A stretch of DNA of 64,000 bases from Rubripirellula sp. (GCA_965216875.1 OZ244207.1:1920001-1984000); one strand, 5' to 3'; positions 53,133-61,418 are shown, numbered from the stretch's first letter. Translations and numbers: made by a program. The notes: generated by a model from the sequence alone, not told the origin.

Positions 53133-53467
53133 AAGAGCCCGTAGCTACGCTCGCCAGAGCGTGGTCCATCGGATCGCGTCGATGGACAGTCCCACCGTCT
53201 GGCGACGGTAGCTACGTTGGGAGTTCAAGAGCCCGTAGCTACGCTCGCCAGAGCGCGGTTTTGTTGCTGGCATCGTCCGCGTATGCCCCACCGTCTGGCG
53301 ACGGTAGCTACGTTGGAGTTCGATAGCTCGTAGCTACGCTCGCCAGAGCGTGGTCCATCGGATCGCGTCGATGGACAGTCCCACCGTCTGGCGACGGTAG
53401 CTACGTTGGAGTTCAATAGCTCGTAGCTACGCTCGTCAGAGCGTGGTTCTGTTGCTGGCATCGTCCT
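53133..53467. repeat. BIME-like array of 7 alternating family-B GTAG REPs
   Basis: Forward copies at 53141, 53235, 53330, 53423; reverse copies ending 53215, 53311, 53404; internal linkers alternate A-B-A-B. Confidence 0.9.
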
Positions 53468-57108: not shown

Positions 57109-57178
57109 CATCGTCGCCTTTCGCTCCGCGAAAGTTGCGCCCGAAAACGCTACTTTCGCGGAGCGAAAGGCGACGATG
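57109..57178. repeat. Perfect 27-bp inverted repeat between convergent genes (REP-like, possible bidirectional terminator)
   Basis: catcgtcgcctttcgctccgcgaaagt / actttcgcggagcgaaaggcgacgatg. Confidence 0.85.
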
Positions 57179-57215
57179 GTTTTTGTGGCGTCGACAGAGA
57201 ATGCTCGCGTCATTT

Positions 57216-58124
57216 CTATTTGGCGTGCAAAAACATCCCGCACGAAGCTTGGACGTCGAATCCGACCCTCGGAATGACGCGAACGCGTGAGTTGGGGAGT
57301 CGACGGCGATAGACCTCGGCGCAACGTTCGATCACCGATTCGTTCGGTTCGCGTCCGTGTCGTACAGGATCAAGCGGGTTGTAACGCACGATGTTGATGT
57401 GCACCATCAATTTGCGGTTTTCAATCTCGTCGCAGATCGCGTGCACATCTTCGATGCGATCATTCTCACCTTCGATGAACGCGTAGTGAAGCTTGCAGAT
57501 CTTGTAGGTCGCGCGCTGATAGCTGGCCAACCGGTCCAACGCGTCACCATAGTGCATTGCCTTGGGAAGCCACTTGCGTCGAAATGCGTTTTCAACGCTG
57601 TAGATCGAATAATAGATCTCGGGGTGGTAGGTGAGGAAGATGTCCTCGAGCCTTCGATCACCGAGTGTTTTGGGCATAATCGTCGAAACGAGGTAGCGCG
57701 GGCGCACATTAAGGTGTTTGGCGCGCGCCGCGAGTCCGCCCAGAATCTCATCGGCGGAATCCAAAACGACTCGGCTTGCGAGTGCCTCGCCGCGTGCCAT
57801 GAAATTGAAGTGGACCGATTCCGCAGTTGGCGTCTCGGTTGCGTAGTAGTCAAGCACCACGTCTGCTTGATGCAGTAATTCGGTAACGCTCACATCGCGG
57901 GTTTGCGTCTGTTTGCTCGCGGTCAGGTGACACATTCGGCAACCGCGGTCACACCCAGTTTGCGAGGAAAGGTAAACTACGAAATAATCCTCGCGTCGGC
58001 GAACGTACCGCGCTTCGATACTGCCAACGTCGGCTGCAAACTCCCAATTGACTGAGGCGTCTTGTTCGCTGACAAAACGGCGTGCGTCTTCCAAGTCGGC
58101 CATCGAATCCGAAACGTGCGTCAT
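57216..58124 (-). CDS. Atypical RlmN/Cfr-family radical SAM protein
   Basis: YLSSQTGCDRGCRMC, NFMARGEAL, IEGEND, NIVRYNP, GFDVQASCGMF; SD ggaga upstream of 58124. Confidence 0.88.
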   Translation of the reverse strand: MTHVSDSMADLEDARRFVSEQDASVNWEFAADVGSIEARYVRRREDYFVVYLSSQTGCDRGCRMCHLTASKQTQTRDVSVTELLHQADVVLDYYATETPTAESVHFNFMARGEALASRVVLDSADEILGGLAARAKHLNVRPRYLVSTIMPKTLGDRRLEDIFLTYHPEIYYSIYSVENAFRRKWLPKAMHYGDALDRLASYQRATYKICKLHYAFIEGENDRIEDVHAICDEIENRKLMVHINIVRYNPLDPVRHGREPNESVIERCAEVYRRRLPNSRVRVIPRVGFDVQASCGMFLHAK

Positions 58125-58162
58125 CCCAATCTCCCAATGCGAAACACTTGTCACAAGATAGT

Positions 58163-58966
58163 GTGGTGCGACTAAAACGACAAACTGTCAGCGACTCGGT
58201 TCGGCATCAAGTGCTTGAGGGGGCGCTTGCGCGATTGGTGCAGGTGCAGACGAGCCATCCTTACGTCTTGCGGGGTGGCATGTTGTTGCGGCACTGGTTC
58301 ACCACGGTCGAGCGTCCCTCGACCGATATCGATTTGGTTTCACTCGACGAATTCGACGTCCAACGTGCGACGGAGGCACTCACGCCGTTGCTGCATGTGG
58401 ACCGGATCGATGACGGTGTTCAATTCGACACCGAGCGATGGCGAGTGCAACCGATTTGGATGGATACCGATTTTCCTGGGATCAGAATGATCGCATTGGC
58501 CACAGTCGACGCCCAACAGGTTGCATTCAGCGTTGACATTACGTTCGGTGAATCGCTGGTGCCGGAGCCGATGTTCGAGAAGCTTGAATCAGCCGCTGCG
58601 GGCCCGATCGAAATCCTGGCTTGTCGGCCCGAAGCGATCTTGGCTCGCAAACTGCAAGCGTTGAGCGATATGGCACTGCAACATTGGCGACCCAAAGACC
58701 TCAACGACATTTGGCATTTGCTTGAGTCGCGGCAACTTGATCGCCGTGACGTCGTCGATGCCATCCATTATTCATTCAACAGTCGAGGGTCGAGTGCCGG
58801 CGCCGCCCGCGATATGTTTGGGGAAGACTCTTGGTGGAAAACCCAGACCGCGAAGGCGCGATGGCGTGACTTTTGTGTTGCCAACCGGCATTGCGCCGGC
58901 ACCGCGTTGTCGCAAATCGTATCGGATGTCGCCCAGCAACTTGTGCCAGTACTAGGACAACTTTGA
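58163..58966 (+). CDS. AbiEii/AbiGii-family nucleotidyltransferase
   Basis: LRGG...RPSTDIDL, VDITFGE, EAILARK, RPKDLND; start uncertain. Confidence 0.85.
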   Translation: MVRLKRQTVSDSVRHQVLEGALARLVQVQTSHPYVLRGGMLLRHWFTTVERPSTDIDLVSLDEFDVQRATEALTPLLHVDRIDDGVQFDTERWRVQPIWMDTDFPGIRMIALATVDAQQVAFSVDITFGESLVPEPMFEKLESAAAGPIEILACRPEAILARKLQALSDMALQHWRPKDLNDIWHLLESRQLDRRDVVDAIHYSFNSRGSSAGAARDMFGEDSWWKTQTAKARWRDFCVANRHCAGTALSQIVSDVAQQLVPVLGQL

Positions 58967-60447
58967 TGCCATCTGCAGAGCAACAGGCTTTGGTCGCCGC
59001 CATCAATGAACAGCCAGACGACGATACGCCGCGTCTGATTTATGCCGACTGGCTCGAGGAATCTGGCGACCTTAATCGGGCTGAGTTCATTCGCGTTCAG
59101 ATCGCAATTGCCAAGCTTGAACACTGGGATTCGGAGTTTCTGCCGCTGTACGTGCGCGAAAAGACGCTCACGAAGAAGTGTGGCAAGCAGTGGCGAAGCG
59201 AGCTGCCAATCATTCCAGGTGTCGAGTGGGGAAGCTTTCGTCGGGGCATGATGGCGACAGCCACGATCATTGAGTCAGCGACGCTTTCAACCAAGGCAGA
59301 CCAAGCTCGCGAGCACGCGCCTCTGGAAGCACTCACCATCGGTTGGCCCGATTCTCGGCGCAGTTTTGATGATCCCGCTCCGATTCCTGGAATTCGTGAA
59401 CTGCATATTCACGAGGCACCCTACCTCGGACCTGAAGACATCTCGATGCTCGCCTGGTCGCCGATTCTTGGTGGCATCGAAACACTTGCGATTGGAGATT
59501 CGAATTTAGGTTCGGATGGCGTGCGACGGTTGCTCGAGGGCACCGGGCTCGCGTTCCTCAAAAGGTTGCGACTGTTCAACAACGCGATTGGCAATGAAGG
59601 ACTCGATGCGATTTTGGGAGCGTTTGCCGGTTTGGAGGAGCTTGATTTGTCGGAACCGGACAGCTACGGGCGGTACGAAGAGGATCCTGCAATCAACGCC
59701 GATGGTATGCGTGCACTCGCCGACTGGCCGCAAATGAAATCGCTCCGCCGTCTTGCGATTTCCGGGAATGCGATCGGGTCGGAGGGGCTTTACGCGCTCG
59801 TTCAATCGGAACACCTGGGGAACCTCAAAGAACTGGTCGCTCGCAACACCGACCTGTCGGGTTCGTCAATGGAAGCCTTTACGCGCGCAAACCGAGACAT
59901 CAAGTTCGAGTTCATCGATGTCGGCGAGAACTACATCACTGACGTCGGAGCTCAATTCATCTCGCTCGGGGAAAGCCTCGACCAGCTCAAGGGGCTTCGC
60001 GTTGATCGGTGCGAAATTGATCGTATTGGGGGACTGGCTTTGGCCGATTCCGCAATGGTCCACTCGCTCACCAAGCTCGATTGCAACGACAACTTGCTCG
60101 GGGACGAGCCCGTTGTAGCACTCATCGAACGAGACCCTGCTCAGCTGAGCACCTTGCAACTTGCAAACAACGGGTTGGGCAGAGCAGCGGTCGAAGCGAT
60201 TGTAAAGAGTGACTGTGGCGCGCGACTGCAGGCACTCGACCTCCGCGGCAACCGACTTGTCGACGATGACGTAACGCCCATATTCGAGGCGGGGGCGCTG
60301 CCAGGGCTGCTTGCAATGCGACTCGGTTCGAACCGAATGAACCATCCCGAAAAGATCGTCGAGACCGATCTCGGAAAACGACTTCTCGACGCGGCCGACT
60401 ACGACCCGGCATCTGCTGTCCCCTTTTTCGCTCCCTATGACCTATGA
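58966..60447 (+). CDS. TIGR02996 domain + RI-like leucine-rich repeat protein
   Basis: PDDDTPRLIYADWLEE.GD..RAEFIRVQ, FRRGM, then ~28-aa LRRs (LxLxxNxIGxxG); TGATG overlap with upstream gene. Confidence 0.92.
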   Translation: MPSAEQQALVAAINEQPDDDTPRLIYADWLEESGDLNRAEFIRVQIAIAKLEHWDSEFLPLYVREKTLTKKCGKQWRSELPIIPGVEWGSFRRGMMATATIIESATLSTKADQAREHAPLEALTIGWPDSRRSFDDPAPIPGIRELHIHEAPYLGPEDISMLAWSPILGGIETLAIGDSNLGSDGVRRLLEGTGLAFLKRLRLFNNAIGNEGLDAILGAFAGLEELDLSEPDSYGRYEEDPAINADGMRALADWPQMKSLRRLAISGNAIGSEGLYALVQSEHLGNLKELVARNTDLSGSSMEAFTRANRDIKFEFIDVGENYITDVGAQFISLGESLDQLKGLRVDRCEIDRIGGLALADSAMVHSLTKLDCNDNLLGDEPVVALIERDPAQLSTLQLANNGLGRAAVEAIVKSDCGARLQALDLRGNRLVDDDVTPIFEAGALPGLLAMRLGSNRMNHPEKIVETDLGKRLLDAADYDPASAVPFFAPYDL

Positions 60448-60472
60448 ACCGCTTGCTTGGTCAAGCTAGTTG

Positions 60473-61285
60473 ATGACTGACCGCGCCTACTTAAACCATC
60501 GCGTCGCGTTTGCCGTTGGGACGGGGCGATGCGGGACGACCCTGCTTTGCGAACTCTTGCGACAAGAGCCATCAGTCGCGTCGTCGCATGAGCGCGCTCG
60601 ACTGCGCACGAACTTTCATATGTTCTGCAAATGGCACGGGATCGAAGTCGATCCCGAGGGATTCTTGCGGGCGAGACAACGCGAAATTGAAAGCGACTTT
60701 GAATCGCATCAGCACTCGTTTGAAAGTAGCGCTCTACTGTCGCACTCGATCGACGAGCTTGCCGATCGGTTTGCGGCAAAGTTTATCTGGCTCGTGCGCC
60801 ATCCGGCAGCGACTGTTGCGTCGTTTGCGGCGCGGGGGTGGTTCCGAGAAATTCAGTCACGGAGCAACCCACATTTGCCGCCTACCTACGAAGGACGCGA
60901 TGGCGAAAAGGCGCGTCACTTTTTTGGACGCATCATTCCCAATGGCGATGAATTCACCACGTTCGAGAAGATGACGCCGATTGGGCGCATCGCATGGTTC
61001 TGGCAAGCAAGGAACCGCGCGATTTCAGAGCAACTTCAGCGGCTTCCGCGATCGCAGTGGAAGCTGCAGAGAATCGAAGATCTCGATTTCCAAGCGTACC
61101 GCGAACTTACAGAGTTCATCGGATTCACTCCGAGTCTCAGCGAAGCGACGTTTGAGCAACTGGCATCCGCCAAAATCAATACAGGGCCCGAGCCAACAAC
61201 GGTTGATGCATGGAGCGAACAGGAAAAGGCGGAGTTCGAAGGGCAAGTCGCGGCGATGTCCGAGACACTGGCCTACAGTCTGTAA
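60473..61285 (+). CDS. Sulfotransferase family protein
   Basis: GTGRCGTT (5'-PSB loop); LVRHPAATVAS (3'-PB motif). Confidence 0.8.
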   Translation: MTDRAYLNHRVAFAVGTGRCGTTLLCELLRQEPSVASSHERARLRTNFHMFCKWHGIEVDPEGFLRARQREIESDFESHQHSFESSALLSHSIDELADRFAAKFIWLVRHPAATVASFAARGWFREIQSRSNPHLPPTYEGRDGEKARHFFGRIIPNGDEFTTFEKMTPIGRIAWFWQARNRAISEQLQRLPRSQWKLQRIEDLDFQAYRELTEFIGFTPSLSEATFEQLASAKINTGPEPTTVDAWSEQEKAEFEGQVAAMSETLAYSL

Positions 61286-61297
61286 TGTCGTCGAACC

Positions 61298-61418
61298 GTA
61301 GGGTGTGTGCTTGCACGCACCAAGACACTCAGGTGAAGGCCGCGGAGCGGCGAAGAGTGTGTTCCCACGGGGACCGTGGGAACAAGGTTGATGTAGGGTG
61401 TGTGCTTGCACGCACCAA
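61298..61418. repeat. Two direct family-C REP arms flanking a gttcccacgg/ccgtgggaac hairpin
   Basis: gtagggtgtgtgcttgcacgcaccaa at 61298 and 61393. Confidence 0.8.

Follow-up and report, generated by a model that had tools for sequence, protein, structure and literature searches.

A rare four-gene unit of Planctomycetota and Myxococcota joins an AbiEii-type nucleotidyltransferase to a TIGR02996-leucine-rich repeat partner, a radical SAM enzyme and a sulfotransferase

Here, we analysed a 64,000-nucleotide stretch of the genome of Rubripirellula sp. (GCA_965216875.1 OZ244207.1:1920001-1984000; hereafter, the window), in which the original prediction, made from the sequence alone, had proposed an RNA-targeting conflict module. 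Open reading frame calls and profile matches confirmed the four genes in question: on the minus strand, an RlmN/Cfr-like radical S-adenosylmethionine (SAM) enzyme (57216..58124; 302 aa) and, divergently on the plus strand, an AbiEii/MenT-type (DUF1814) nucleotidyltransferase (NTase; 58163..58966, with an alternative start at 58166; 266-267 aa; PF08843), a protein with a TIGR02996 head and a ribonuclease inhibitor-like leucine-rich repeat (LRR) solenoid (58966..60447; 493 aa), and a protein of the Sulfotransfer_3 family (60473..61285; 270 aa). The fine arrangement described earlier can be read directly in the sequence: the divergent starts of the radical SAM and NTase genes, predicted to lie about 40 bp apart, are separated by 38 bp (58125..58162), or 41 bp if the GTG at 58166 is the start; the NTase stop and the LRR start overlap by 1 bp in a TGATG at 58964-58968; and 25 bp separate the LRR stop from the sulfotransferase ATG. 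A public contig covers positions 57149-61384 without a differing letter, and may come from the source sample itself. The labels of homologs point to a planctomycete host.

The four genes form a real, rare, and conserved unit of Planctomycetota and Myxococcota. When genome contigs were scanned with an alignment of the radical SAM enzyme, 67 loci were obtained, one duplicate being left out (a single-protein query gave no matches), and 44 loci fell within the clade of the module enzyme or belonged to it as fragments (62 rows with Shimodaira-Hasegawa-like approximate likelihood ratio support of 100 in a quick tree of 114 rows). The NTase is present in 38 of these loci, the NTase together with the LRR protein in 35, and all four genes in 20, so that the co-occurrence across the two phyla, on which the original prediction had proposed to test the module, is borne out; one of the six clade loci without the NTase ends early at a contig end. 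Neither the NTase nor the LRR gene was found in the 61 radical SAM loci outside the clade (22 genomic and 39 viral). Starting from the NTase, 39 metagenome loci were collected and 38 analysed, one weak hit being dropped; among the 26 with enough flank, the LRR gene lies directly downstream in 24 and the divergent radical SAM gene is present in 20. The loci are titled Planctomycetota and Myxococcota, with a few bins titled Alcaligenaceae or Proteobacteria falling among them. The outer flanking genes differ from locus to locus, and the divergent layout is kept across the two phyla, with radical SAM-NTase gaps of -27 to 306 bp (median 65; script start calls) in 45 related pairs. The short gap in the window may reflect shared regulation of the two arms. 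In six loci (L027, L038, L050, L053, L085, and L112), module genes are split across frames, by assembly error or decay.

The association is also evident at the level of whole genomes. In 251 genomes of one family (that of G359, whose locus L030 is titled Gemmataceae), searched with an NTase threshold of E<=1e-50, the radical SAM enzyme was found in 24, the module-type NTase in 25, and the sulfotransferase in 10; all 24 radical SAM genomes are among the 25 with the NTase, and all 10 sulfotransferase genomes are among these 24, which, given that the genomes are kin and several had been used in the profiles, amounts to co-retention and not to 24 independent events. Four genomes with a lone radical SAM gene carry the module NTase elsewhere, with a TIGR02996-LRR gene following it in 5 of 6 such places. 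Closer to the window, the unit is rare: it occurs in 2 of 201 genomes of the window's family, the window genome was the only carrier among 301 genomes of the phylum, and in a congeneric genome that is 97% complete, the left flanking genes are retained beside a different gene at the place of the module.

One could argue that only half of this unit matters, namely, that the NTase and the LRR protein are a plain toxin-antitoxin or addiction pair, with the LRR protein as an antitoxin acting by binding and the radical SAM enzyme and the sulfotransferase as passengers of the cassette. Indeed, the NTase-LRR link is the tightest in the unit (distance correlation of 0.94, against 0.81-0.90 for the other pairs), the pair occurs without a nearby radical SAM gene in loci L092, L093, and L103, and the radical SAM family is found alone in the 61 loci outside the clade. 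However, the genome-level co-retention (24/24 and 10/10) persists where the genes are not adjacent, the divergent layout survives across two phyla despite the changing outer flanks, and there are no recurring mobile-element genes among the flanks. We regard passengers as an unlikely explanation of the two further enzymes.

The catalytic residues of all three enzymes are conserved. The NTase matches PF08843 (AbiEii) with 91.4 bits, against a cut-off of 22.5, and the PADLOC AbiEii model (PDLC02319) with an E-value of 3e-49, and is the sole match to the AbiEii family in the whole genome. Its catalytic motifs, read as intact in the original prediction, align with G50-G51, D67, D69, K188, and D192 of the Streptococcus agalactiae AbiEii (numbers counted on the printed alignment), and residues G38, G39, D55, D57, K163, D179, and D182 of the GG, DxD, K, and KDxxD motifs are invariant in 34 module NTases. 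The module NTase also matches the structure of the S. agalactiae protein (PDB 9HLO; E 2e-23). The module NTase is a putative tRNA 3'-end nucleotide-adding enzyme and a putative toxin.

The closest described systems, AbiE of S. agalactiae and the type VII systems MenAT1 and MenAT3 (TakA-TglT), share with the module the NTase family and the catalytic residues, and the folds of MenT3 and MenT4 resemble that of a fusion relative of the module NTase. The differences are nevertheless substantial, as the module has no AbiEi or MenA, its partner is a downstream TIGR02996-LRR protein with two more linked enzymes, its NTases form a clade of their own, and the phosphoacceptor residue (T65/S78/T39) is mostly alanine. 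No AbiEi-type antitoxin lies upstream of the NTase in the window, in agreement with the original prediction, and none was found in the module loci with an AbiEi profile of our own. Neither did a cognate AbiEi come to light elsewhere in the genome: AbiEi_4 gave no match genome-wide where control genomes gave matches, and the single AbiEi_2 match lies 1.4 Mb away with its own adjacent NTase, so that a distant partner can be rejected for these two families; AbiEi_1 and AbiEi_3 gave no match either, yet the control genomes were equally silent. The AbiEi_2 gene and its neighbour, a weak NTP_transf_8/DUF2204 match, make up a second antitoxin-NTase pair at G000:C1:560507-562722.

In the AbiE system, AbiEi binds AbiEii and induces auto-phosphorylation at T65, as described in the accessible text of two reports (10.64898/2026.01.19.700257; PMC11375011). 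By alignment, T65 stands two residues ahead of the first catalytic aspartate. Among 64 module NTases, i.e., the near-full-length sequences in which a script located the motif, this position is Ala in 56, Val in 5, Thr in 2, and Ile in 1, whereas it is Thr in 13 of 13 AbiEi-paired NTases of related genomes, 12 of which have an upstream gene matching AbiEi_4. A quick tree separates the NTases of the module, those paired with AbiEi, and the fusion proteins into three groups (support 96, 100, and 100); in this tree, the placement of L201, mis-cut to 54 aa, is meaningless, and P0329 was left out. No module NTase was found in viral contigs. Judged from these sequences, with no cognate AbiEi found and a phosphoacceptor that is mostly alanine, the module is not AbiE.

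A candidate for the place of AbiEi is the product of the LRR gene. The protein carries the TIGR02996 head at residues 6-49 (71.9 bits, against a cut-off of 29.05), followed by LRR_6 repeats (41.9 bits). Given the overlap of the two genes, their joint duplication, and the existence of a natural fusion, a dedicated NTase-TIGR02996 partnership is strongly supported: the reading frames of 32 of the 33 full-length pairs share 1 or 4 bp; the two are duplicated as a pair in loci L110 and L038; and a distant NTase family of 143 proteins carries a TIGR02996 head at the C-terminus in 114 of the 120 members listed. The profile of this fusion family matches the module NTase (HHalign, 99.0%) in an alignment that stops at fusion residue 303, with the head helix starting at residue 306, so that the fusion joins its parts exactly where the genes of the window overlap. 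A model of the fusion protein is confident over all 390 residues (predicted local distance difference test score, pLDDT, of 94; predicted template modelling score, pTM, of 0.93), and these scores suggest a fixed packing. Its best fold matches are TglT/MenT3 (Z 17.1) and MenT4 (Z 16.7), and the head (fusion residues 303-353) matches only tetratricopeptide repeat-like hairpins, weakly (Z <=5.8). A phosphoacceptor Ser or Thr is lacking in all 114 of the 120 fusion proteins in which the motif was found. The fusion family (L023:1477-2649; L204-L210; P0244-P0363) is present in 7 of the 251 genomes.

Considering that the window genome has 15 TIGR02996 matches and that the representative library holds 35,031 TIGR02996 clusters, the LRR gene could in principle stand next to the NTase by chance or local hitchhiking, leaving the NTase an orphan under some other control. 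However, the module LRR proteins are one alignable family with shared inserts, the NTase stop is overlapped in nearly every pair, and in a distant clade the head is fused to the NTase itself; these linkage counts nearly refute a chance neighbourhood, which we consider very improbable. Ribonuclease inhibitor-type LRR proteins, which we take to be alike in placing LRR_6 repeats beside a putative RNA-acting enzyme, differ from the module protein, which is bacterial and TIGR02996-capped and whose inhibitory role is only putative. Elsewhere, proteins P0364-P0377, mostly of 1,000-3,700 aa, contain as many as 13 stretches resembling TIGR02996, with few matches to Pfam, and are possibly phage polyvalent proteins. 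The row of genes at G000:C1:7556343-7560982 consists of an AAA-ATPase-like gene, one of 490 aa, and a pair with TIGR02996, one product having, by eye, a WGR-like N-terminus; we presume that this may be a MoxR-type ternary system.

In all 7 fetched fusion loci, a gene or domain of 200-230 aa (cl154) is found upstream or fused, and it also lies upstream in the NTase-LRR loci L115, L117, and L197, so that the upstream place is filled either by the radical SAM enzyme or by cl154. In comparisons with Pfam, NCBIfam, and PDB, cl154 gave no convincing match; its neighbours in the Atlas are unnamed clusters, mainly actinobacterial, and its sequences (L115:5258-5950, L197:2316-3020, L177:2307-3002) have two FExH-like motifs and an LSR motif.

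The match of the radical SAM enzyme to TIGR00048 (RlmN) reaches 61 bits, far below the cut-off of 290, and its model (pLDDT 92.7) is best matched by RlmN (Foldseek against 3RFA, E 1.9e-16, template modelling score of 0.74). Like RlmN and Cfr, the class A radical-SAM RNA methylases, it has the CxxxCxxC cluster cysteines, at 58/62/65, and, as aligned to 3RF9, the equivalents of E105 (Glu37), M176 (Met109), and the methyl carrier C355 (Cys295), residue numbers being counted on the alignment; C295 and E37 are invariant in 85 sequences. Unlike in RlmN/Cfr, the place of the resolving cysteine (C118/C105) is occupied by a tyrosine, Tyr51, which aligns to C118 of wild-type RlmN and to the A in C118A chains and is invariant in 85 of 85 sequences, the phage ones included, and present in 117 of 119 homologs, the other 2 having no motif match. 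The accessible text of a review describes C118/C105 as indispensable for resolving the covalent protein-RNA intermediate (PMC9692996). Furthermore, the RlmN N-terminal domain (PF21016) gave no match in the window protein, a true RlmN giving one, and the window genome carries a separate canonical RlmN. On this sequence evidence, the enzyme is not RlmN, and adenosine C2/C8 methylation of rRNA or tRNA is a putative activity.

The closest relatives of the enzyme belong to jumbo phages, plasmids, and Patescibacteria. Relatives at 39-54% identity occur in 21 phage records of 207-357 kb, some of them duplicates, including 201phi2-1, Psa21, Phabio, and CcrColossus, and further ones in the 39 viral loci, megaplasmids, and Patescibacteria. 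Because the module clade sits among such phage, plasmid, and Patescibacteria rows in the quick tree, its topology suggests capture of the radical SAM gene from mobile elements. Outside the clade, the gene neighbours RtcB (8 viral loci), MazG (L071), dCTP deaminase (L075), and dCMP deaminase (L147 and L162), with thymidylate synthase two genes off in L166; given these neighbours, free nucleotides and RNA are equally plausible as substrates. The two enzymes may be associated a second time in the alphaproteobacterial bins L068 (7876-8661) and L070, also outside the clade, where the radical SAM gene is convergent with a gene for a distant sulfotransferase-like protein (Pfam E 0.0018).

The sulfotransferase, bracketed in the original prediction, belongs to the unit as an old part, by its distribution in the tree. 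It matches Sulfotransfer_3 with 33.1 bits (cut-off 27), 23 of 25 aligned members match the family at E<=0.01, and a sequence comparison with solved structures gave no match. Because myxobacterial and several planctomycete branches carry it, and it did not come to light in one planctomycete subclade of 24 rows, it is probably old in the unit and was lost once. A sulfatase with an intact CxPxR follows it in 8 of 26 loci, though not in the window, and a sulfatase follows the radical SAM gene in L091; the linked sulfatase in the 8 loci would lend indirect support to sulfuryl transfer. Sulfation of a tyrosine-rich loop of the LRR protein was considered as a target and dropped, the loop, by eye, being rich in tyrosine even where there is no sulfotransferase.

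With this enzyme complement, a different explanation deserves a place: a non-toxic modification pathway, in which the NTase, the radical SAM enzyme, the sulfotransferase, and the sulfatase would act in series on a nucleotide, an RNA end, or a metabolite, and the TIGR02996-LRR protein, as a scaffold or substrate adaptor, would not inhibit the NTase but activate and direct it. The enzymes are retained even when dispersed, as in G363, where radical SAM and sulfatase, NTase and sulfotransferase, and NTase and LRR genes lie at three places; outside the clade, the radical SAM enzyme keeps the company of MazG, deaminases, and thymidylate synthase, and it has no RlmN N-terminal domain; cl154 can take the upstream place; and defence-island context is missing. 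However, the 24-row subclade keeps the other three genes without a detectable sulfotransferase, which would break a linear series in that group, the characterised proteins nearest to the NTase are toxins that target tRNA, and the patchy spread and LRR multiplication of the unit fit conflict better. We therefore consider such a pathway possible, if doubtful.

The LRR protein itself behaves as the variable part of the unit. In 22 four-gene loci, mean identity falls from 65% for the radical SAM enzyme and 60% for the sulfotransferase to 41% for the NTase and 36% for the LRR protein, the fastest-changing component, and the LRR gene alone is tripled in L027, L030, and L125. Some myxobacterial LRR proteins (L058, L059, L062, L121, and L123) have a conserved N-terminal domain of about 140 aa, for which neither Pfam nor NCBIfam gave a match, and poly-Asp tails. 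The C-termini are unusual in another respect: 16 of 54 distinct module LRR proteins end like single-stranded DNA-binding protein (SSB), in [DE]x0-2[ILV]P[FW], a further 14 have at least six D/E within the last ten residues, and 24 have neither an SSB-like tip nor a strongly acidic end. Among the ~5,300 script-called proteins of the window genome, there is a single SSB-like end, that of SSB itself, and 17 acidic ends; among 150 general TIGR02996 representatives, many of them probably fragments, there is no SSB-like end. The acidic tip of SSB (MDFDDDIPF in Escherichia coli) is a hub for partner proteins, according to the accessible text of PMC7913777; the resemblance is confined to the tip, as the LRR carrier has no OB (oligonucleotide/oligosaccharide-binding) fold. 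The tail might serve as bait or plug.

Carried further, this would give an LRR-guarded immune complex, in which the SSB-like tip plugs the tRNA site of the NTase and at the same time baits SSB tip-binding replication proteins of the phage or the host; once the tip is pulled away, the NTase would shut down translation. The Cys-to-Tyr radical SAM enzyme, in this scheme captured from jumbo phages, would either resolve the adduct via tyrosine, by a new chemistry, or trap RNA covalently, and sulfation and desulfation would stand in for phosphorylation as the reset. As a whole, this elaborate scheme is improbable.

The interpretation that we favour, with roughly even chances of being correct, is simpler: the unit would be a conflict system, one of toxin control and probably directed against phages, built around an LRR-gated AbiEii/MenT-type toxin that targets tRNA, and in it the usual AbiEi and phosphorylation switch would be replaced by a dedicated TIGR02996-LRR partner. 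Because it follows the C-terminal helices of the NTase in the fusion proteins, the TIGR02996 head would dock on these helices, with the LRR body or the acidic tail holding the enzyme off. A trigger would free the NTase, the likeliest candidate being a phage protein that binds the LRR or the SSB-like tail; the NTase would then extend tRNA 3' ends and stop translation. In the same response, the radical SAM enzyme, probably acquired from phages or plasmids, may act on an adenine nucleotide or RNA, and the sulfotransferase, joined by the sulfatase in some myxobacteria, may add a reversible mark to a substrate. The first of these steps, docking with the enzyme held off, is the best supported, and the trigger and the roles of the two additional enzymes are the weakest. 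The patchy and rare occurrence of the unit and its fast-changing, multiplied LRR gene are in line with such a system. CapRel-SJ46, a fused toxin-antitoxin that senses phage, can be taken as a model of how such a system works: in the accessible text (PMC9712102), it too is a tRNA-modifying toxin with an inhibitor-sensor domain, and a fused form exists in both cases. The toxin of the module is not a toxSAS, however, its sensor is unrelated, and in the module trigger and autoinhibition are only proposed.

Several observations weigh against the gated-toxin interpretation. The accessible text of the AbiE report (10.64898/2026.01.19.700257) states that in vivo the T65A mutant of AbiEii loses toxicity about 100-fold and escapes neutralisation by AbiEi, so that a family with Ala at this position may be only weakly toxic or not toxic at all; T65A nevertheless still blocks translation and is itself partly blocked in vitro by binding alone, so that these data cut both ways. 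According to the same text, S. agalactiae AbiE gave no protection against 32 coliphages. The window NTase, an exception in its mostly-Ala family, has Ser53 at the phosphoacceptor position, and the tail of the window LRR protein has a degenerate version of the SSB-like tip of its relatives, not placed at the terminus. Linkage is incomplete as well: of 43 clade loci with enough flank, 5 lack the NTase, the radical SAM gene is not beside the NTase in 6 of the 26 NTase-anchored loci, in L176 the sulfotransferase follows the NTase directly with no LRR gene between, and the family-wide co-retention, as said, is not a series of independent events. The conservation of the radical SAM enzyme and the sulfotransferase also fits a metabolic or modification pathway. 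Finally, the surroundings of the unit are not defence islands: of 136 proteins flanking it in 40 loci, only 10 match PADLOC models, mostly through generic kinase, protease, E1, or repeat domains, there being no control set. In the window, PADLOC recovers the NTase as AbiEii and neither of the two flanking genes. Beside the closest four-gene locus, at L028:7975-9569, an SPFH/Band 7 gene is followed by a reverse transcriptase that scores with retron reverse transcriptase models.

Repetitive extragenic palindromic (REP)-like hairpins had been thought to bound the block. Both exist, one hairpin at 57109..57178 and a repeat pair (61298/61393) at 61298..61418, but these repeats are found at 141 and 161 places in the genome and therefore do not mark block edges; they were rejected as a sign of insertion. 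Reads that join 57178 to 61297 are explained by two composite REP sites elsewhere in the genome. Recent foreign origin of the block is unsupported, as its GC content is flat and its codon scores lie at the 10th to 66th percentile, both ordinary for this genome. At 53136-53452, several copies of another REP-like repeat are clustered in the window at a spacing of about 94 bp.

The four-gene unit is apparently undescribed. In full-text literature, with subscription journals mostly outside the scope, no paper names TIGR02996; no paper combines AbiEii, leucine-rich repeat, and Planctomycetes, and no title or abstract describes the unit, supplements being outside the scope. The accessible text of PMC8195603, PMC3113570, and 10.64898/2026.10.19.760177 does not describe it, and the main text of a jumbo-phage survey (PMC7824862), as far as accessible, does not mention RlmN or radical SAM. 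Domain-architecture tables in the supplements of comparative papers could list the neighbourhood.

The results presented here offer a first testable partner for TIGR02996, a family of about 35,000 sequence clusters, and point to control of AbiEii/MenT toxins independent of the phosphorylation switch. They also delineate a conserved family of RlmN-like enzymes, found as well in jumbo phages, nucleus-forming ones among them, in which the cysteine releasing the RNA crosslink is naturally missing, so that their chemistry must differ from that of RlmN. Should the guarded immune complex prove real, TIGR02996 would be a general effector-docking head, which would help to explain both its expansion and its phage copies.

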